Counted from the stretch's first letter, positions 516-37,549 are shown. The stretch is 64,000 nt of DNA from Cryomorphaceae bacterium (GCA_003566715.1 PXCF01000139.1:18275-82274), one strand, 5' to 3'. The notes: a model not told the origin generated them from the sequence alone. Numbers and translations are program-made.

Positions 516-2498
516 ATGAATATTTCCTATAACCGCGAGTTGTTCGATAACGACGAACTAAAACATATTTATCGCACCATTCTCAAACCGAGATTGATTG
601 AAGAAAAAATGCTCATTGCCTTACGCCAAGGGAAAATCTCTAAGTGGTTTTCCGGCTATGGACAAGAGGCCATATCGGTGGGAACGACTTTGGCAATGAA
701 GCCCGAGGAACACATTCTCACCATGCACCGTAACTTGGGGGTATTTACCACGCGTGATATCGATTATTACCGCTTGTTTGCCCAGTTTCAAGGGAAAATG
801 GACGGTTTTACTAAAGGTCGCGATCGCTCGTTTCACTTTGGCAGCAAAGAACACAACATCGTGGGGATGATATCGCACTTAGGGCAGCAATTGGGCGTGG
901 CCGACGGGATTGCGCTGGCGTCTCTTTTGCAAAAAACAAAGCACGCGACGCTGGTATTTACCGGCGATGGAGGTGCCAGTGAAGGTGATTTTCACGAGGC
1001 ACTCAACGTGGCCGCGGTCTGGCAATTGCCGGTGATATTTGTGGTGGAAAATAACCAATGGGGACTATCAACCCCAAGCAATGAGCAGTTCCGATGCGCG
1101 TCTTTCGTAGACAAAGGTGTGGGATACGGCATGCGCTCGGAGAAAATCAACGGTAACAATATTCTCGAGGTAATAGAAGCCACCCGCTCTTGGGCGGAGC
1201 GCATCAGAGAGAAACCGGAACCGGTGTTGCTGGAATGCGTGACATTTAGAATGCGTGGTCACGAAGAAGCCAGTGGGACAAAATACTACCCCGATGGTTT
1301 GATTGATCACTGGGAGGCCTACGATCCTGTCAATAATTACCGAGATTTTTTAATTGAGGAAGGACTGCTTACCGATGATGAGGACGCGCAATTGCGCCAA
1401 GAGATTACCAAAGAAATATCCACAGCTTTACAAGCAGCCATGGACTCTCCCGACGTGGAGTACGATGAGGAGGTAGAAAAGGCAGACGTCTATGCGCCAT
1501 GCGACGCTCCCTTGGTGGAGCCAGGAGAAAAGACGGAAGAAAAGCGCCTCGTTGATGCTATTTCCGATGGTTTGCGCGAGGGGATGACCAAGCACGACAA
1601 TCTCGTGATTATGGGACAGGACATTGCCGAATACGGAGGCGTGTTTAAAATCACCGATGGCTTTGTCAAAGCATTTGGTAAAGACCGCGTACGCAATACC
1701 CCTTTATGTGAATCGGCCATTATCGGTGCCGGACTTGGACTGTCGGTACGCGGGATGAAAAGCGTGATTGAAATGCAATTTGCTGATTTTGTTACCGAGG
1801 GCTTTACGCAAATTGTTAACAATCTTGCAAAAATTCACTACCGCTGGGGACAAAATGCCGATGTGGTGATCCGTATGCCAACAGGCGCCGGGGTACAAGC
1901 CGGACCGTTTCACAGTCAGAGCAATGAGGCGTGGTTTGCCCATACTCCCGGACTGAAAGTGGTGTATCCCGCTTTCCCCGCTGATGCCAAGGGATTGCTT
2001 CTCCGTGCCATTGAAGACCCCAATCCAGTGATGTTTTTTGAACACAAGGGCTTGTACCGTTCGCTGTATGGACAAGTACCGGATGGTTATTACACTCTGC
2101 CATTTGGCGAAGCAGCATTGGTCAATGAAGGTCAAGCGGCCACCATTGTCACCTATGGTTTAGGCGTTCACTGGGCATTGGAATGGCAAAAGCATCACGC
2201 CGATACACAGGTAGATATCATTGACTTACGCACACTCGTGCCTTTGGATGAGGAGACCATTTATGCCTCGGTAAAAAAGACCAATCGCGTTCTTGTGTTG
2301 CACGAAGATTCTACCACGGGTGGTTTTGGTGCGGAAATATCGGCGCGGATATCTCATAACTGTTTCCGCGAACTCGACGCCCCCGTCATTCGCTTAGGCA
2401 GTGAAGATACCCCGGTGCCTTTTTCCGGTATATTGGAAAAAGGATTTTTGGCCAATGCCCGGTTGGAAAAAACGATGGAGGAATTGCTAGCGTTTTAA
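516..2498 (+). CDS. 2-oxo acid dehydrogenase E1 component with fused alpha and beta subunits (TPP-dependent, branched-chain/pyruvate type)
   Basis: The 708-aa ORF carries E1-alpha motifs (GDGGASEGDFHEALN, NNQWGLSTP) followed by E1-beta motifs (MGQDIAEYGGVFKIT, NTPLCESAI). I trimmed the start to the ATG at 516 (MNISYNRELF), because the ORF-track start at 372 is TTG. Confidence 0.85.
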   Translation: MNISYNRELFDNDELKHIYRTILKPRLIEEKMLIALRQGKISKWFSGYGQEAISVGTTLAMKPEEHILTMHRNLGVFTTRDIDYYRLFAQFQGKMDGFTKGRDRSFHFGSKEHNIVGMISHLGQQLGVADGIALASLLQKTKHATLVFTGDGGASEGDFHEALNVAAVWQLPVIFVVENNQWGLSTPSNEQFRCASFVDKGVGYGMRSEKINGNNILEVIEATRSWAERIREKPEPVLLECVTFRMRGHEEASGTKYYPDGLIDHWEAYDPVNNYRDFLIEEGLLTDDEDAQLRQEITKEISTALQAAMDSPDVEYDEEVEKADVYAPCDAPLVEPGEKTEEKRLVDAISDGLREGMTKHDNLVIMGQDIAEYGGVFKITDGFVKAFGKDRVRNTPLCESAIIGAGLGLSVRGMKSVIEMQFADFVTEGFTQIVNNLAKIHYRWGQNADVVIRMPTGAGVQAGPFHSQSNEAWFAHTPGLKVVYPAFPADAKGLLLRAIEDPNPVMFFEHKGLYRSLYGQVPDGYYTLPFGEAALVNEGQAATIVTYGLGVHWALEWQKHHADTQVDIIDLRTLVPLDEETIYASVKKTNRVLVLHEDSTTGGFGAEISARISHNCFRELDAPVIRLGSEDTPVPFSGILEKGFLANARLEKTMEELLAF

Positions 2499-8385: not shown

Positions 8386-8391
8386 GCCTCA

Positions 8392-8417
8392 TAGAGACGC
8401 AAAATGTCGTGTCTCTA
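8392..8417 (+). repeat. GTAGAGACGCA-family palindromic hairpin, 7 nt after the proS stop
   Basis: tagagacgc-aaaatgtc-gtgtctcta forms a 9-bp stem including one G.T pair. The arm sequence matches the repeats at 32385-32473. Confidence 0.7.
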
Positions 8418-8457
8418 CGGTTGACCATTTTAACAATCATAAAAAAACACCGTTGCC

Positions 8458-21472: not shown

Positions 21473-24190
21473 ATGTCCTTGTATTTACGGCAATTTTTAT
21501 TTGTACCTCTCTTGATTGTGCCGGCATTTCTTTTTGCTCAGGTGGAGCCTGATACGCTGTCACGCCTTCCCCGGCATCTGCAAGAAATCGATACCACAGC
21601 GCTAAGCCACGATGCCATGGCCAAAAAAGATTCTGTTCAACCGGATACGATATCACCAAGTATTTTGCCCAAAGAGCCCTATAGAACGTCAAAAAGTCTG
21701 GATGAAATAGTAGATTCAGACGCCCTTGACTCCATTGTAAGTAGCATGAAGCAAGAAAAAACGTTTCTTTACAACGAGGCAGTCGTGGTGTATGGCGATA
21801 TTACCTTAAAAGCAGGATATATTGAAATAGATAATAAGACCAATGAGGTGTTGGCTACCGGAATTATTGATTCTGCGGGTAATTTGGTGCAAAAACCCAT
21901 ATTTATTCAGGGTGGACAAGAGTATCGGTCGGATACCATTCGCTACAACTTTGACTCAGGCAAAGCCCTTATCAAAATGATGCTCACCCAAGAAGGCGAG
22001 GCATTTATGCAAGGGCGAAGAGCAAAGAAAATGGATGAGGACATTTTGTACATCAACAAGGCTTCATACACAACTTGTAGCCACGAGCAACCGCACTTTA
22101 GGATAATGACCACGAAGACGAAGGTGATTCCCAATGATAGAATTGTTACCGGGCCGGCTTATTTGGAGGTTTTGGACTTGCCAACGCCTTTAATGTTGCC
22201 CTTTGGTTTTATGCCCACACAAGAAGAGCGTAAATCGGGTATCTTAATTCCCGCCTACGGAAGCAGCTTAGATCGCGGTCACTTTTTACGCGGAGGTGGG
22301 TTTTACTTGTCGATCAGCGATTATTGGGATTACACCGTTCGAACAGATATTTTTACGCGCGGTGGTTATGGTTTGTTTAATAACGTCAATTATGCCCAGC
22401 GGTACAAGTTTAGAGGACAAGTAAACATCGATTACAACAAGCTAATTATTGGTCGCCCCGAATTTGCGGATTACGGTCAATACAACAATTCGAGTGACTT
22501 TTCTGTACGCTGGAACCACCAGCAAGACCCCAAGGCTAATCCAAATTTACAGTTTTCTGCCAACGTTAATATCGCTACCCAATCGTTTAACCAGTTGGCC
22601 ACACAAGACCCGATGACCAACCAACAAAACCAACTGCAGTCGTCCATTAACCTCAATAAGAGCTTCGACGGAAAGCCGTATTCACTGGCTATTCAAGCCG
22701 GTCATAATCAAAGTAATGCCACGGGTAATTTGAACCTCGACTTGCCTACGGTCAATTTCAACATGAACCGGATTTTCCCATTTAAGAAAAAAGTGTTTAC
22801 TGGAAAAGAGGCTTGGTATGAGAAAATCGGGGTGCAGTACACGGGTAATTTTAGAAATTCCATCGAAACCAATTTGGACGACTTTGAAATGAACCCCAAC
22901 TTCCTGCTTGAACAGTCAAGAAACGGGGTGCGACACAATATTCCTATCAATGCCAACTATAAGATTTTCAAATATTTCACCTTGGTGCCTTCGGTGAACT
23001 TCACCCAGCGCTGGTATTTTAATCGCATGGACTTTGAATACAACGAGCGTCAAATTACGGAGGACTCCGTGGCGTTTGGGGTAGATACAATTATTTCTCC
23101 GGGTTTTTACACACCTTCTAATTATCAGGTAAGAGCAGATGTTACAACCAAAATTTATGGTATGTGGCGTTATAAAAAAGGTCCGTTGGCTGCATTAAGG
23201 CACGTCATTACCCCAAGTGCCGGGGTGAGTTTTTCGCCTGATTTCGCCGATCCATTTTGGGGTGCCTTTCAAGAAGTGCAAATCAATCCCGAAGGTGAAA
23301 CCCAAATGTTTAACCGCTATGGCGGTAGAGATTATATTTTTCAGGGATTACAATCAGGAAGGCAAGGTAATCTTAACTTTCGTATAGATAACGTATTGGA
23401 GGGTAAGCTAAAGTCAAAAAATGATACCGTTGAGGGGCAGAAACTTAAACTATTGGAGGGCTTGAGCATGCAAGGAAGTTACAACCTTGCCGCAGAAGAA
23501 TTGCAGTGGAGTCAGATTCGCATAACCGCTCGTACGTCCATTCTCAAAGGACTTATCGCCTTTAACTACAATACAGCTTTCGATCCGTATGCAGCCAATG
23601 AACGCGGACAGAGAATCAACGAGTTTTATATCAACACAGATGGGCGATTGCTGAGACCAGTCAACAGTCAGTTCAACGTGTCAACGAGCTTAAACAACCG
23701 CACCTTTGGCACCGTGAAAAAAGGTGGCGAAAACCCGGCCAAGCAACCCGTGATCGATCCGCTTTACGATCCGCTCAACGTGGAGAGTGGTTTTGGTGCT
23801 TACACCACGGGCGACCCCAATTATCATTTGCTCAATTACTATGTTGACTATACCGCCACGTGGAACCTGCGCCTCAATTATGTGGTCACTTCGCAAATTC
23901 GACAAGATGAAACACTCGTCAATCAAACATTTGACTTCAGTGGCGATGTTCAATTAACGGGTAGCTGGCGCATTGGCTTTAGCTCGGGGTACGATGTTGT
24001 CAACGCCGGATTCTCTTATACATCCCTGGATTTTTATAAAGACCTACACTGCTGGGAACTCAATTGTCGCTGGATTCCCTTTGGCGTCCAGCAATCGTAT
24101 TTTCTTTCCATCGGTGTAAAAGCCCCGATGTTCCAAGATTTGAAACTGGAGCGTCAGCGGGGTATCGGAGACTTTGGCCAAACTTTCTAG
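21473..24190 (+). CDS. lptD: LPS-assembly protein LptD-like (OstA N-terminal fold plus large beta-barrel)
   Basis: About 905 aa with a signal peptide and an OstA-like segment (VVVYGDITLKAGYIEIDNKTNEVLATG). It is divergent from the amidase gene, as is common in Flavobacteriia. The alternative GTG at 21446 is possible. Confidence 0.7.
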   Translation: MSLYLRQFLFVPLLIVPAFLFAQVEPDTLSRLPRHLQEIDTTALSHDAMAKKDSVQPDTISPSILPKEPYRTSKSLDEIVDSDALDSIVSSMKQEKTFLYNEAVVVYGDITLKAGYIEIDNKTNEVLATGIIDSAGNLVQKPIFIQGGQEYRSDTIRYNFDSGKALIKMMLTQEGEAFMQGRRAKKMDEDILYINKASYTTCSHEQPHFRIMTTKTKVIPNDRIVTGPAYLEVLDLPTPLMLPFGFMPTQEERKSGILIPAYGSSLDRGHFLRGGGFYLSISDYWDYTVRTDIFTRGGYGLFNNVNYAQRYKFRGQVNIDYNKLIIGRPEFADYGQYNNSSDFSVRWNHQQDPKANPNLQFSANVNIATQSFNQLATQDPMTNQQNQLQSSINLNKSFDGKPYSLAIQAGHNQSNATGNLNLDLPTVNFNMNRIFPFKKKVFTGKEAWYEKIGVQYTGNFRNSIETNLDDFEMNPNFLLEQSRNGVRHNIPINANYKIFKYFTLVPSVNFTQRWYFNRMDFEYNERQITEDSVAFGVDTIISPGFYTPSNYQVRADVTTKIYGMWRYKKGPLAALRHVITPSAGVSFSPDFADPFWGAFQEVQINPEGETQMFNRYGGRDYIFQGLQSGRQGNLNFRIDNVLEGKLKSKNDTVEGQKLKLLEGLSMQGSYNLAAEELQWSQIRITARTSILKGLIAFNYNTAFDPYAANERGQRINEFYINTDGRLLRPVNSQFNVSTSLNNRTFGTVKKGGENPAKQPVIDPLYDPLNVESGFGAYTTGDPNYHLLNYYVDYTATWNLRLNYVVTSQIRQDETLVNQTFDFSGDVQLTGSWRIGFSSGYDVVNAGFSYTSLDFYKDLHCWELNCRWIPFGVQQSYFLSIGVKAPMFQDLKLERQRGIGDFGQTF

Positions 24191-24201
24191 TCAGCCACTT
24201 T

Positions 24202-32384: not shown

Positions 32385-32409
32385 GTAGAGACGCAATATT
32401 TTGCGTCTA
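32385..32409 (+). repeat. GTAGAGACGCA-family hairpin (3' arm truncated)
   Basis: gtagagacgcaa-tatt-ttgcgtcta, with an 8-bp agacgcaa/ttgcgtct stem. Confidence 0.7.
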
Positions 32410-32425
32410 ATGAATAACCGCTGCC

Positions 32426-32473
32426 TATAGAGATGCGCACGGCTGTAGAGACGCACGGCAGTGCGTCTCTACA
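32426..32473 (+). repeat. GTAGAGACGCA-family element: an 18-nt half-site duplication followed by a perfect 13-bp hairpin
   Basis: tatagagatgcgcacggc is followed by tgtagagacgcac-ggca-gtgcgtctctaca. Confidence 0.8.
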
Positions 32474-32503
32474 TTCGCCAATAACTGTCCAATACCCCTA
32501 TAG

Positions 32504-32532
32504 CAAAACCCCGTAGGGGTGATCGTGATTAT
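32504..32532 (+). repeat. CCCCGTAGGGG-hairpin repeat, copy 1
   Basis: caaaaccccgtaggggtgatcgtgattat, to be compared with copy 2. Confidence 0.7.
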
Positions 32533-32559
32533 AGAAAATATGTGTTCACCTATTCCCCA

Positions 32560-32588
32560 CGAAACCCCGTTGGGGTGGCCGTAATTGT
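32560..32588 (+). repeat. CCCCGTTGGGG-hairpin repeat, copy 2
   Basis: cgaaaccccgttggggtggccgtaattgt is a direct repeat of copy 1 at about 80% identity. Each copy holds a 4-5 bp GC hairpin. Confidence 0.7.
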
Positions 32589-32795
32589 GCAAAAAAATTG
32601 TTTCGGTTGAAATCATCCACACCCCTAATTGGGTTTGCTGTTGTTGAGGTTTTGGCGTTTTATTCTCTCACACATACATGACCATCAATACAAATATAAG
32701 GCGCTAAATAATTTACCCGATAAAAACTCCTCTGCGTGAATACCTTTGCGTCACTTTAGGCACATTAATTGAAAGGTTCATAGAAAACATATCCC

Positions 32796-33545
32796 ATGAG
32801 AATTCTTATTTTGATTGCAATATTGACCGTTGGTTCGCTACATGCGCAAATGATCAATGCCAATACTGAGGTGTTTCACCGCGACGATAAAAGCAAGGTG
32901 GCATTTAAGGTGAATAAAGAGATCGAGGTGTATTCTCAACCCAATGACAAAAGCGGATGGTTTACGGTGAGAATGATTGTATTGGTGGAAAAGGCATCTG
33001 TCAGCGAAGAAGATTTGCTTGCCTCGGAGAGTTTTCTGTTTGATTTAGACGGAGAGAAGATTGGCGCTACGGTAGGGGAAATGTCCTTGCTGGAAAAATC
33101 CAAAGCGCAGGGAAGAAAGAATAAAGACAAGTGGGTGGCGGTCGTCGAAGGACAGGTGTTTAAGACGAAGTTTGTCCGCGGTACCGTACCGGAAATGACC
33201 TTAGAAAACATTTTTACATCGGGAAAAAAAGGAATGATGGCTCGTCAAGTGGACGACTACATCGAAGAGCATCGGTTGATTCGCGAAGATGTTGGCGAAT
33301 TTTCTTTCTACCCCATATACCGTGAAAACCATTCACTCAAGCGCGATAAAGATTTTAAGATTTTACTGGTGTACAAAAAAGGCGGTTCATTTTACGGCAT
33401 CGTTACCCATGATTTTGCTTTAGACATCCCCGCAAAAACCATCAAAGAAGACGCCCCCATCTACATGTACTTTCCGGTCATGAAAGCCAACGATCGCGAT
33501 CTGAATGAGATTTTTGAGCTCGTGTTTGAGTTTATTGCACTTTAG
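32796..33545 (+). CDS. Hypothetical secreted protein
   Basis: Signal peptide MRILILIAILTVGSLHAQ. I recognise no domain. Confidence 0.5.
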   Translation: MRILILIAILTVGSLHAQMINANTEVFHRDDKSKVAFKVNKEIEVYSQPNDKSGWFTVRMIVLVEKASVSEEDLLASESFLFDLDGEKIGATVGEMSLLEKSKAQGRKNKDKWVAVVEGQVFKTKFVRGTVPEMTLENIFTSGKKGMMARQVDDYIEEHRLIREDVGEFSFYPIYRENHSLKRDKDFKILLVYKKGGSFYGIVTHDFALDIPAKTIKEDAPIYMYFPVMKANDRDLNEIFELVFEFIAL

Positions 33546-33698
33546 TCAACCCGTGCCGTTAGGTACAGTATATCAGTAGCAAACTGATTAGTAACGAAGA
33601 TTCTAAAAAAATTAAAATTCCCGCATTAACATCCAATGCCTTATCAGCCTCACAGGCCTAACTTTAAACTATTCAGAGTTTGTCTACAAAGTTATTGC

Positions 33699-33810
33699 GG
33701 CTGAACTAGAAAGTCGAAAGCAAGGCTTGCGAATATTGAAAATTCGGGAGTTTACTGTAGTAAATGACCGGATTTTCAATTGAGCATAACGCACCTATCG
33801 GACTTTATAG
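33699..33810. repeat. Structured repeat of about 113 nt, copy A (8 nt beyond the tatA stop codon on the minus strand)
   Basis: Aligns at about 80% identity with 34247-34361. It shares the ggctg-NN-ctagaaagt...gcaaggcttgc...gggagtttac...agtaaatgac...tgagc-taacg...ctatcggacttt-tag architecture with terminal inverted repeats. Confidence 0.75.
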
Positions 33811-33818
33811 AAAGCCGA

Positions 33819-34109
33819 CTAGAGTTTTCGTTTGATGGTTCCTGTAATCTCCTCAATCGCCTTCTTCCCCTCCTTAACCGCATCTGTAAGCGAATCCTTT
33901 GCACTGTTGTCTTCGTCTAAGTCATCGTCGTTAAGCGCGCTGTCATTGATGCTGTGCTTGATGTCTTCCGTGGCGTTTTTTACCATGCGAATGCCTTTGC
34001 CCAATTCACGAGCAATGGCGGGAATTTGTTTTGATCCGAAGAACATGATGACCATGAGAACGACAAAGCCCAACTCCCCGAAACCTATGTTGAATAGTAA
34101 GAACTGCAT
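33819..34109 (-). CDS. tatA: Twin-arginine translocase TatA/TatE family subunit
   Basis: FGELGFVVLMVIMFFGSKQIPAIARELGKGIRMVK (TM segment plus amphipathic helix). The ATG at 34109 is preferred, because the TTG at 34130 would overlap the predicted -7 box. Confidence 0.85.
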   Translation of the reverse strand: MQFLLFNIGFGELGFVVLMVIMFFGSKQIPAIARELGKGIRMVKNATEDIKHSINDSALNDDDLDEDNSAKDSLTDAVKEGKKAIEEITGTIKRKL

Positions 34110-34127
34110 AGTAATTTGATAATGTTG

Positions 34128-34135
34128 CAAAGGTA
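34128..34135 (-). promoter_or_regulatory. Candidate -7 box (TAnnTTTG) for tatA
   Basis: Minus-strand TACCTTTG lies 18 nt upstream of the ATG at 34109 and just downstream of the secDF terminator. Confidence 0.35.
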
Positions 34136-34181
34136 CGATACAAATTAAACGTCACTATGCTTTGGATTGTGCTTCAAATGT

Positions 34182-34218
34182 AAAAAAAGCGCCCAATGAT
34201 AAACTCAAAGGGCGCTTT
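34182..34218 (-). terminator. Rho-independent terminator downstream of secDF and repeat copy B
   Basis: On the minus strand: aaagcgccc-(15 nt loop)-gggcgcttt followed by TTTTTTT. Confidence 0.6.
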
Positions 34219-34246
34219 GATTAAAAGCTAATACTATTACCTGTTT

Positions 34247-34361
34247 GGCTGTTCTAGAAAGTTTGAGAGCAAGGCTTGCAAAATTTAAAAATCAGGGAGT
34301 TTACAAATTAGTAAATGACTTGATTTTTAAATGAGCGTAACGAAGCTATCGGACTTTCTAG
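34247..34361. repeat. Structured repeat of about 113 nt, copy B (11 nt beyond the secDF stop codon, before the secDF terminator)
   Basis: See copy A. The terminal inverted repeat is ctagaaagt(t)/(g)actttctag, with internal hairpins gcaag-g-cttgc and aaaaatcagggagtttac/gtaaatgacttgattttt. Confidence 0.75.
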
Positions 34362-34372
34362 ACAGACAGAAT

Positions 34373-37300
34373 CTAAGGTGTGTTACTGCCTTCAGCAATA
34401 GGTTTATTCTTACGTTCAATCTCACGCAAACGCGCCTTTTCCGTGTAAGTATCCACCATGATCGGGGTGGCAATAAACACGGATGAGTAGGTACCAACAA
34501 CCACACCAACCATCAAGGCAAACATAAATCCGCGTATCACTTCTCCTCCAAAGATGAAGATGATGAGCAATACGAAGAAGGTAGTCGCTGAGGTGTTGAT
34601 GGTACGACTGATGGTGCTGTTGACCGCTTCGTTGACCACTTCTTTAATGGGCTTTCGCTTACTGTGGGTGGCAAAATATTCACGAATACGGTCAAATACA
34701 ACCACCGTGTCATTCAGCGAGTAACCGATGACTGTAAGTATAGCTGCGATAAATGACTGGTCAATTTCCAAGCTAAACGGAAGGATACCATAGAAGATAG
34801 AGAAGAGCGCCAATACGACCAACACGTCGTGCGTGGCGGCACTAACCGCTCCCAAACTAAATTGCCAGCCTCTAAATCTCAAGAGAATGTAGAGGAAGAT
34901 AACCACGATGGAGAACAAGATGGCCCAGATGGCTGCTTGCTTAATATCTGCCGCAATGGTTGGTCCAACCTGGCGTTCAGCTACCACACCGTAATCGGCG
35001 TTGTTGGGGTTCATAAAGGAACTGTATTCGGTGCCTTCGGCAATGAATGGCTGTAAACCTTCAAACAGCTTCTGGCGAATGGCATCTTCTACTTCAATAC
35101 CTGATTCATCAATACGGTACTTCGTGGTGATGATAACCTGGTTGGCGTCACCGATGGTTTTTACGATAGGAGGTTGAGGGGTGCCACCTTCGTCTACGAA
35201 GACGTTACCCAGTTCCGATTGAATGTCTACCGTATTCACCGGCTCTTCAAATCGCACTTGGAACGAGCGACCTCCAACGAAGTCTACACCGTAGTCAAGG
35301 CCTTTGACGAATAGTGACACAATACCGATAACGATGATGATACCACTGATGAGGTATGATTTATTGCGTTTTCCAACGAAGTCAAATGACAAGTTGGAAA
35401 AGGCATTCATCGTCAACTTGCTACCAAACTTCACCGATTGTTTTTTAGCCAAACGGCTTTCAAGAATCAAGCGGGTAATAAAAATGGCCGAGAACAATGA
35501 GGTGAAAATACCGATAATCAAGGTGGTGGCAAAACCACGGATAGGTCCGGTTCCGAATACGTAAAGGATGATACCCGTAAGTAGGGTGGTGATGTTCGCA
35601 TCGAGGATGGAAGACATCGCTTGCTTGTAACCGTGTTCAACGGCTAATTTTAATCCTTTTCCGGCGCGGATTTCTTCTCGAACCCGTTCATAGATAAGTA
35701 CGTTGGCATCCACGGCAATACCAATTGTTAAGATGATACCCGCGATACCCGGTAGGGTAAGTACGGCTCCCAAACTGGCCAATACACCAAAGATAAAGAA
35801 CATGTTAACTACCAACGCAACGTTAGATGCTACACCGGCAACGTTGTAGTAGAAGATCATGTACATAAGAACAATAATCAAAGCCAATACAAAAGAGAAA
35901 AGACCAGCGCGAATGGCTGCTTGACCTAGTGAAGGTCCAACCACGTCGGCCTGTACGATACGAGCTGGTGCGGGAAGTTTACCAGCCTTGAGAATATTGG
36001 CCAAATCTTGTGCTTCAAGAATGGTGAAGTTTCCACTGATTTGTGTGCTTCCGCCGCTAATCTCAGATTGAACGGTAGGGAAGGAGTAAACCAAGTTGTC
36101 GAGTACCACGGCCACACTGCGTTTAGGTTCTTGACTGGAGGCTTCACGGGTAATTTTTTGCCATTTCTGAGAACCTACGGCATTCATGCGCATGTTCACG
36201 ATGGGGCGGTTGCGTTCGTCGAAGTCTTGACGCGCGTCAACAACGACATCTCCATCAAGAGCCGGCGTCATATCGCGGTTGCCTTTTAGTGCCAACAAGT
36301 AAACGAGTTGGTCGGGGCCTTCAGGCTTGGCAGACCAAGCAAAGCGAACGTAGCGCATAGAAGCAGGAAGAAGCGCACGAACCTGAGGCATTCTCAGGTA
36401 TTCGTTAACTTTTGCCGTATCCTGAACGCGCGTATATCCTACGATAGGGCCTCTTCCCGGACGGTTCTCTTGAAAGTCGTAGTTGGGAGCAAATACGTCA
36501 AAGAGCGGATTAAACAATTGTTCTTCATCGATATCGGTAGTGTCACCTTCATCAGACAACAAAGATTCAAAGTCGTCTTCTTGTGTTTGTTCGTCGAGAA
36601 TGGCGTCTAGTTCGTCGGTTGATTCATCGCCTTCGTCAATGTTGTCAGCGGCTTCTATGTCCAGCTGATCAATTTCGTCATCGCTCATGGGTTCGATATC
36701 TAAATCACCCAAAACATCACTGATGTCTGCATCACGATCTTCGCCTTCCGGACGCTCTACCAACGTACGTAAGCGCTCATTGGCTTGTCCTAAGAATTCG
36801 ATCAACTCAACACCTTCGTAGAGGTTCCAGAACTCTAGTTGCGCGGTGCTTTGCAATAGGCGTTTAACACGATCCGGATCTTTTACACCGGGAAGTTCTA
36901 CAAGAATACGACCGGTATTTTCCAGTTTTTGGATGTTGGGTTGAACCACACCAAACTGGTCGATACGAGCGCGCAATACGGTGTACACATTGGAAACGGC
37001 TGCTTCTACTTCGCCGCGTAGCTCTTCTTTGATTCTCGCGTCTTGGGCGTTAAAGCCAAGACGGTCGTTCATCATTTTTGTACCGAACAAACGAGAAGAA
37101 GCATAGTTGATTTTCTCTTCTTCATTGGCGATGATGCGATCCAATTCACGGAAGAATACGTTGACGTATAGTTCATTAGACCCCCCTACATTTTTATCTG
37201 CAGCTTCTATTGCCGCGATGAGTAATGGCTCTTCTTTGTCGTTAGACAATTCCTTGATGATGTCTTTTACCGATACTTCAAGGATGACATTCATCCCCCC

Positions 37301-37549
37301 TTTAAGGTCAAGACCCAAGTTGATCTCACGTTCTTTGACCTCACTGAATGTGTAATTGCGCAACCCTAGATTGTAAACTCTTTGATTGGCCATGGAGTCC
37401 AAATACGCATTTTCCTTTTCAACATCGCCATCGGCGTAAGCCTTTGCGGCCTTTTCAACGCGATACGTCACGAATGAAAATGACAACTGGAAAAGGCAGG
37501 CTAAGGCAAAAACAACGGCAAAGCCTCGGATTAACCCCTTATTTTGCAT
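34373..37549 (-). CDS. secDF: Protein translocase subunit SecDF (fused)
   Basis: 1058 aa with SecD and SecF transmembrane bundles (GIAGIILTIGIAVDANVLIYERV; SLNDTVVVFDRIRE) and a large periplasmic domain. Confidence 0.92.
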   Translation of the reverse strand: MQNKGLIRGFAVVFALACLFQLSFSFVTYRVEKAAKAYADGDVEKENAYLDSMANQRVYNLGLRNYTFSEVKEREINLGLDLKGGMNVILEVSVKDIIKELSNDKEEPLLIAAIEAADKNVGGSNELYVNVFFRELDRIIANEEEKINYASSRLFGTKMMNDRLGFNAQDARIKEELRGEVEAAVSNVYTVLRARIDQFGVVQPNIQKLENTGRILVELPGVKDPDRVKRLLQSTAQLEFWNLYEGVELIEFLGQANERLRTLVERPEGEDRDADISDVLGDLDIEPMSDDEIDQLDIEAADNIDEGDESTDELDAILDEQTQEDDFESLLSDEGDTTDIDEEQLFNPLFDVFAPNYDFQENRPGRGPIVGYTRVQDTAKVNEYLRMPQVRALLPASMRYVRFAWSAKPEGPDQLVYLLALKGNRDMTPALDGDVVVDARQDFDERNRPIVNMRMNAVGSQKWQKITREASSQEPKRSVAVVLDNLVYSFPTVQSEISGGSTQISGNFTILEAQDLANILKAGKLPAPARIVQADVVGPSLGQAAIRAGLFSFVLALIIVLMYMIFYYNVAGVASNVALVVNMFFIFGVLASLGAVLTLPGIAGIILTIGIAVDANVLIYERVREEIRAGKGLKLAVEHGYKQAMSSILDANITTLLTGIILYVFGTGPIRGFATTLIIGIFTSLFSAIFITRLILESRLAKKQSVKFGSKLTMNAFSNLSFDFVGKRNKSYLISGIIIVIGIVSLFVKGLDYGVDFVGGRSFQVRFEEPVNTVDIQSELGNVFVDEGGTPQPPIVKTIGDANQVIITTKYRIDESGIEVEDAIRQKLFEGLQPFIAEGTEYSSFMNPNNADYGVVAERQVGPTIAADIKQAAIWAILFSIVVIFLYILLRFRGWQFSLGAVSAATHDVLVVLALFSIFYGILPFSLEIDQSFIAAILTVIGYSLNDTVVVFDRIREYFATHSKRKPIKEVVNEAVNSTISRTINTSATTFFVLLIIFIFGGEVIRGFMFALMVGVVVGTYSSVFIATPIMVDTYTEKARLREIERKNKPIAEGSNTP

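Follow-up and report, generated by a model that had tools for sequence, protein, structure and literature searches.

The closest behavioural precedent for the repeats described here is provided by the ERIC elements as known from Yersinia. ERIC copies are reportedly co-transcribed with their neighbours, and their effect on the mRNA is said to depend on orientation. The ERIC/IRU elements of Enterobacteriaceae are non-coding palindromic MITEs of ~127-150 nt with a long hairpin, whose copies lie at or overlap stop codons mostly in one orientation, and the habit described for Yersinia is similar to the one reported below (PMC2229807, citing De Gregorio et al. 2005, J Bacteriol 187:7945). ERIC duplicates TA, whereas the element studied here duplicates a 6-bp TAWWTA sequence. 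The two belong to different phyla and have no sequence similarity, and our element differs further in that the centre of its hairpin is hypervariable and covarying.

The Correia/NEMIS elements of Neisseria and the RUP elements of Streptococcus pneumoniae resemble the present one in being short, AT-rich MITEs bounded by inverted repeats, with targets that contain TA and numerous copies close to genes; their hairpin can be processed as RNA, and their duplications are TA (PMC2229807). RUP has a candidate parent, IS630-Spn1, whereas none was found for the element here, and the promoter and IHF motifs of Correia were not seen in it (PMC2229807). REP and REPIN sequences are also dispersed palindromes, often located behind genes, with stems kept by compensatory change; unlike our element, REPINs lack a signature of terminal repeats plus duplication, and they flank a co-occurring RAYT gene. 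Within Bacteroidota, MITEs are described from Porphyromonas gingivalis, which are unrelated in sequence and of other size and structure (PMC4596501, PMC2575886).

Here we analysed a 64,000-nt stretch of DNA (the window; contig C82:18275-82274) from a genome of 2.46 Mb in 153 contigs, referred to as G000, together with five congeners, G001 to G005. A first-pass annotation had noted two related repeats behind tatA and secDF and had offered two identities for them: a structured 3'-UTR element or sRNA precursor common to the two export genes, or a REP/MITE-like element that targets gene ends. The second proposal was borne out, as the repeats are short and non-coding, with terminal inverted repeats, a fixed 6-bp duplication and dispersed copies whose sites are filled in one genome and empty in congeners. 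We conclude that both are very probably copies of a family of non-autonomous DNA transposons (MITEs), with both insertions lineage-specific and their association with tatA and secDF incidental.

Anatomy of the element and of its two copies in the window

The two window copies, A and B, are direct repeats that align in three collinear blocks, namely 33699-33714 with 34247-34262 (88% identity), 33716-33755 with 34265-34304 (83%) and 33758-33814 with 34309-34365 (84%), and BLAST gave 80% over 116 nt, in agreement with the first estimate of ~80%. The flanking genes were also correctly named: tatA (33819-34130) encodes 103 aa with a PF02416 domain, and secDF (34373-37549) encodes a fusion protein of 1058 aa. 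These genes and all features of the two copies are assigned to the minus strand. The first-pass annotation had delimited a 113-nt unit ending in inverted repeats, which covers just the inner portion of the element; an outer inverted repeat was detected, and the true spans are 33676-33819 and ~34240-34369. The bases that had been counted as gaps of 8 nt after the tatA stop and 11 nt after the secDF stop belong to the element or its target.

Copy A (33676-33819) has the complete form, is 144 nt long and matches the full-length copies of G002 over query positions 1-148. Its gene-proximal terminal inverted repeat lies at 33801-33819 (GTCGGCTTTCTATAAAGTC on the minus strand), and its distal outer repeat (33676-33693; GAGTTTGTCTACAAAGTT on the plus strand) had been overlooked. 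The conserved 3' module (33697-33730) comprises an inner, third terminal repeat (GCGGCTGAACTAGAAAG-TCGAAAGC) and a small perfect hairpin, GCAAGGCTTGC, which is visible at 33720-33730 as first described; it is followed by the variable central hairpin (33735-33780; arms 33735-33756/33759-33780), the stem of which covaries among copies. The 5'-to-3' module orientation of copy A is the direction of tatA, and base 33819 is both the first base of the copy and the G of the tatA TAG stop (33819-33821).

Copy B (34240-34369) is ~130 nt long, and its ends are blurred, with the distal outer repeat mostly deleted. Its variable central hairpin lies at 34283-34332 (arms 34283-34307/34308-34332); the long interrupted hairpin of the first description was recovered by repeat search in both copies. 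The proximal end is adjoined by the hexamer TAGATT (34370-34375), which contains the secDF stop TAG (34373-34375), and the distal end by TAATAG (34234-34239), a hexamer that in G001, where the site is empty, comes after the last codon of SecDF. Beyond copy B, as first noted, lies a hairpin followed by U7 that resembles an intrinsic terminator of secDF (34182-34222, minus strand, -20.3 kcal/mol), and which a simple terminator scan misses because its loop is long (15 nt). This hairpin also occurs in G001, where the site lacks the element, and it therefore predates copy B.

Both copies fold stably on either strand, with z-scores for folding energy of -3.5 to -9.0 relative to shuffled sequence. 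Copy A folds as a single long hairpin (-46.1 kcal/mol on the plus strand, -35.1 kcal/mol on the minus strand), and the plus strand also folds better in copy B (-51.9 vs -37.3 kcal/mol).

The genome-wide search proposed in the first-pass annotation yielded 49 BLAST matches in G000, which four rounds of nhmmer developed into 41 distinct loci, and further copies were found in relatives. About 41 loci, 32 of them of at least 100 nt, are thus held by G000; the copies are 110-157 nt long and non-coding, with stops in all three frames within ~42 nt of the 5' end. A complete element measures ~145 nt and carries 18-nt terminal inverted repeats, GTGGCTGTCTATAAAGTC vs GAGTCTGTCCATAAAGTC. Its order is GTGGCTGTCTATAAAGTC, a conserved 5' module (CGATAGCTGCGTTATGC), the sequence-variable long hairpin, the conserved 3' module with its inward-facing third terminal repeat and small hairpin, and the second terminal repeat. 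The full-length G002 copies, which reach ~25 nt past the originally delimited unit on one side, read in the direction of the upstream gene as hexamer, GTGGCTGTCTATAAAGTC-CGATAGCTTCGTTATGC, hairpin, GCAAGCCTCGCTCTCGAACTTTCTAG-nn-CAGCCAC-TTTGACTTTATGGACAGACTC and the same hexamer again. Owing to its near-palindromic structure, the element matches the model on both strands at every locus; one strand was always better by 5-10 bits, and module-specific patterns agreed on the orientation.

In the G000 alignment the ends are conserved, and the sequence of the central stem varies from copy to copy with its pairing kept. About half of the G000 copies also carry an optional perfect hairpin of 14-18 nt, CCCCGATAGCTATCGGGG, between the 3' module and the central hairpin. 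This hairpin contains the CCGATAGC string that also occurs in the 5' module, which suggests that the optional hairpin may have arisen by copying from the opposite arm.

Other repeats were seen alongside the main form. A second, shorter subfamily (~80 nt) has the terminal repeat and 5' module of the main form, with a GC hairpin, GGGTTAGCGCAAGGCTAACCCC, in place of the long AT-rich one (G000 C34:2052, C141:2608, C47:25930, C50:28389 and C125:7429; also L063 in G005). At 24175-24199 of the window, 18-20 nt match the inner terminal repeat (AACTTTCTAGTCAGCCAC) in surroundings that hold no other element sequence; this is either a relic or chance. Other hairpin repeat families (GTAGAGACGCA hairpins) are listed at 8386-8420 and 32385-32592, one of them 7 nt past the proS stop, so that several repeat families would lie behind gene ends in G000.

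Target duplication, empty sites and the presumed mobilising enzyme

Target duplication was examined in 39 complete elements from at least eight genomes. The flanking 6-mers were identical in 28, compared with 4.9 expected and a maximum of 12 in 2000 partner shuffles. The duplication has the consensus TAWWTA, within a flank logo of Y-T-A-W-W-T-A at both ends, and includes TAATTA, TAACTA, TAAATA, TAGTTA and TATTTA; in G002 the flanking hexamer is the same within a copy and different between copies. The duplicated unit is a hexamer, and not the TA dinucleotide of ERIC-like or IS630-derived MITEs. Both window copies are old, and the decay of their duplications counts against a MITE: the flanks of copy A read ACTCTA vs TGAATA, and the ends of copy B are readable in two ways.

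Comparison with congeners showed the corresponding sites without the element. In G001 the copy B site reads ACACCA-TAATAG-CATTTGG followed by the terminator, and the SecDF C-terminus (NTP*) is unchanged; none of the five congeners searched has a copy after secDF. Copy A is missing from G001 and G005, the two congeners with a readable site after tatA, and TatA ends in KRKL* in all. Other G000 element sites are empty in one to four congeners, among them one locus that is empty in 4/4 of the congeners fetched and another where G001 has no insertion and the flanks on either side contain TA. There are also common sites: one copy beside a tRNA-Arg gene is common to G000 and G001, and one site is filled in three species by variants with differing inner hairpins.

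These data bear directly on a dedicated 3'-UTR element or sRNA precursor that would coordinate secDF and tatA, an idea suggested by two stably folding copies behind functionally related neighbouring genes. The empty orthologous sites refute it as the primary identity, and the ~39 other G000 copies adjoin unrelated genes and tRNAs. Three of them lie 11-15 nt from different tRNA-Arg genes (C97:18803, C25:10043 and C153:29401; L006, L009 and L018), which have the anticodons tct, ccg and cct; two are at the 5' end of the tRNA and one is at the 3' end. The Rfam search that had been recommended returned no relevant family at E up to 1 for 33000-35000 on both strands, the only hits being chance snoRNA-like ones inside secDF. 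With the transposon hallmarks added, such a dedicated element is very improbable, and the MITE reading is the one that we follow.

Several sites may record further rearrangement. At C45:1608-1718 of G000 and the corresponding locus of G001 (C64, L062) the boundaries are identical (TAGCATTGGCTG ... CAGCCAAACGG) with the element interior inverted, and the G001 copy additionally has a CCCCGG..CGGG hairpin; this would be explained either by recombination of the terminal repeats that flipped the interior or by two separate hits on one site. Complete G002 elements often adjoin, just past the duplicated hexamer, the start of another, often partial, element (L070, L076, L078, L080, L082, L083 and L086), so new copies seem to insert at existing edges and build tandem arrays. 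In L139 (JAVLBR010000259.1, 1407-2368), on a contig with ~2x the usual coverage, a flavin-reductase gene (PF01613) has an element of a further variant on each side, with outer hexamers TACTTA and TACTTG; the two may be neighbours by chance or form a composite unit.

The element is present in 5/5 congeners. A single BLAST hit was obtained in 1/19 other genera of the family, and no match was found in any of the 16 other families of the order that were searched. The terminal-repeat pattern (at most one mismatch) gave 21, 13, 160, 37, 19 and 5 matches in G000 to G005, respectively. One genome from a different genus has 233 and a few more genomes have fewer than ten each, compared with 0-1 matches for the reversed-pattern control. 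In GTDB representatives a 25-nt pattern gave at least 115 stretches; the matches listed come from MAGs that carry the label Schleiferiaceae, Cryomorphaceae or Flavobacteriales or, in a few cases, Bacteroidales or Bacteroidaceae. Near-identical copies are found, for example, in MAGs from the Uz-K11 and CCAP 1475/9 samples. Lineage-specific variants keep the 5' module and the long hairpin, with entirely different stem and apex sequences. As far as searched, the family is confined to an uncultured Schleiferiaceae/Cryomorphaceae clade of Flavobacteriales.

The 6-bp duplication points to a DDE-type transposase, by which the element is presumed to be mobilised in trans. A search of G000 and of 115 loci of 8 kb, all from fragmented MAGs, turned up no autonomous element that has these terminal repeats; assembly or binning of such MAGs often misses insertion sequences. 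Three pairs of terminal repeats enclose host genes instead (an MscS-like channel, a sulfotransferase-like ORF and a flavin reductase), and no such repeats were found near IS1595-, IS4/IS5- (DDE_Tnp_1) or rve-type transposase genes in G002, G003 and G042. The missing parent speaks against a MITE, but it is weak evidence because all the genomes searched are fragmented MAGs.

Mobilisation by a REP-associated Y1 transposase (RAYT), as for a REP/REPIN-type element, would suit the palindromic architecture, and G000 has two PF01797 genes, one of them a Y1_Tnp gene on contig C6 that lies 760 nt from the best-conserved, near-consensus copy. However, 6-bp duplications and true terminal inverted repeats are not products of Y1 transposition, and hairpin repeats that differ from the element, and belong to the C6 gene itself, stand on either side of that gene. 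Nor do the two co-occur: homologues of the C6 gene were found in 21/121 genomes of the family, are missing from the MITE-bearing G001, G003, G004 and G005, and are present in many MITE-free genomes. We rejected this link as extremely improbable.

Contig C6 (L031) deserves a description in its own right. Its IS200-like Y1_Tnp gene (1344-1811, minus strand) stands between arrays at 650-1330 and 1900-2450, which consist of 50-300-nt repeats rich in short GC hairpins (CGTGCCTAACGGCACG, CCATCCCGTTAGGGATGG, CCGTCCCTACAGGACGG) and have BLAST matches almost only on C6 itself. The layout is like that of a REP-RAYT locus.

Stop codons and orientation

According to crude ORF-based gene calls, which underlie all statistics on element context, ~25 of the 41 G000 loci have their 5'-module end 0-13 nt from the stop of a gene reading towards the element. 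An ORF of at least 80 aa stops within -3 to +8 nt of 21/35 proximal ends in G000 and, by the same measure, of 40/119 ends in other species. Almost all of the latter are at offset -1 (TA|G), where the stop is formed by TA and the first G of the element, or at +3, where it is the first three bases of the hexamer. At these offsets the stop therefore lies in the duplicated target, preserved or rebuilt. Of the non-disruptive TAWWTA sites, only 12-14% share bases with a stop, and the observed 34-60% thus amounts to a three- to five-fold enrichment over availability.

A sequence of events can be proposed from these observations. The element enters a TAWWTA hexamer and duplicates it, a step that is shown by the flanks. 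As the hexamer holds TAA or TAG and the element starts with G, TA|G restores the stop and the protein therefore stays intact. In a genome that is ~88% coding, stop codons may be among the few harmless sites, and copies would pile up on them and so join 3' UTRs. The enrichment could reflect either such harmlessness combined with selection, or true targeting or a wider target preference.

Orientation at stop codons is one-sided in G000, where the 5'-module end is at the stop in ~20 cases and the other end in 0-1 (two-sided binomial, ~2e-6). The bias is weaker in other species, at 22 vs 9 in a symmetric 45-nt window and 8 vs 3 among complete elements. The hexamer is unlikely to set the orientation because the target is almost palindromic. 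The G000 copies are more diverged than those of other species and have the stronger bias, which, on few data, is compatible with selection after insertion. One-sided orientation of this kind is not expected of plain MITEs, and it stands among the points against that reading.

A position directly after stop codons also recalls the integron attC site, a structured, strand-specific site of site-specific recombination that follows cassette ORFs. The imperfect palindrome, its conserved ends, the variable but structure-keeping centre and a slight single-strand asymmetry would all agree with such a site. The genomic distribution contradicts it, as the copies are single and dispersed behind housekeeping genes on more than 30 contigs with no cassette arrays; hexamers are duplicated at the ends, and there is no GTTRRRY/RYYYAAC core in the sequence. 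We regard the probability of an attC-like site as negligible and retain the transposon.

Pairing in the central hairpin and its possible meaning

Covariation was assessed on an alignment of 40 copies from six genomes, using the RNAalifold structure extended by hand. Standard pairs filled 93.8% of cells, compared with 88.4 ± 0.4% after shuffling, 16 pairs had changed on both sides (10.2 shuffled), and changes on both sides were seen in 107 cells (35 shuffled), although copies share descent and such per-cell counts overstate the number of independent events. The observed pairing values were reached by 0/500 shuffles, and slid controls paired at 31-42%. In the central helix, compensatory change affects 12/20 pairs, one of which is GC in 18, AU in 14 and UA in 8 copies. 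The compensatory change that the first-pass annotation had read from two copies is thus real and general.

The same annotation had held that many dispersed copies with duplications and no covariation would indicate a plain MITE. Copies and duplications were found, whereas the hairpin covaries, and more strongly than expected of plain MITEs; it may therefore have a secondary role at the RNA level or as a single-strand structure. Complementarity could be kept either by selection on the folded single strand or by template switching during replication, which can keep hairpins complementary without selection (PMC8794818).

The preference for the plus strand that had been noted from G.T pairs is present but weak. 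The window plus strand, which is antisense to tatA and secDF, pairs better than its complement (93.8% vs 89.1%), and two conserved G.T columns and a tandem G.A account for most of the difference. Once these are set aside, the comparison is 39 G.T vs 24 A.C cells, which is not decisive. No Bacteroidota-type promoter box (TAnnTTTG) was found when the consensus was read by eye on either strand, and a sigma-70 and terminator scan of the region yielded no informative signal.

We also considered whether the MITE might have been taken over as a putative 3'-UTR RNA module, in which the hairpin would modulate mRNA decay, termination or ribosome release according to its orientation, and in which that putative function would maintain both hairpin and orientation. 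The covariation described above is consistent with this, as are the retention of a long hairpin in other lineages despite its entirely different sequence, the common direction of the stop-codon copies in G000 and the precedent of ERIC (PMC2229807, citing De Gregorio 2005). Moreover, copy B lies between the secDF stop and an older terminator and should therefore be transcribed. However, the better-pairing strand is antisense to the mRNA, other species have a weak orientation bias, insertions are not conserved at orthologous sites, the interior is inverted between two species at one common site, and template switching offers a route to the same pairing without selection. On balance we consider a takeover of this kind unlikely. 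Direct selection on the central hairpin as a folded single strand, whether in a mobile 3'-UTR module or in a strand-specific DNA intermediate of an undescribed transposase that recognises gene ends, is similarly doubtful, and the preferred reading is that of a MITE.

The proposal of an RNA regulator specific to secDF and tatA was a false lead, which is now removed. What replaces it is an undescribed MITE superfamily in uncultured freshwater and saline-lake Flavobacteriales, defined with exact ends, target and copy numbers, which is useful for annotation and for explaining assembly breaks in MAGs. Terminal-repeat counts per genome range from 5 to over 200, so the family is also a marker of recent genome dynamics, and its hypervariable, always paired hairpin lends itself well to telling structural selection from template-switch mutation. 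If the hairpin were selected as a single strand, the family would be more than junk DNA and would regulate gene ends in Flavobacteriales as a structured element that spreads itself; in the 3'-UTR form, orientation-specific retention on stops would reflect an effect on translation termination or mRNA decay. Taken together, this is a selfish element of an ordinary sort whose landing habit is unusual, and its stop-regenerating insertion is a clean natural example of a transposon that fills 3' UTRs without harm to genes.
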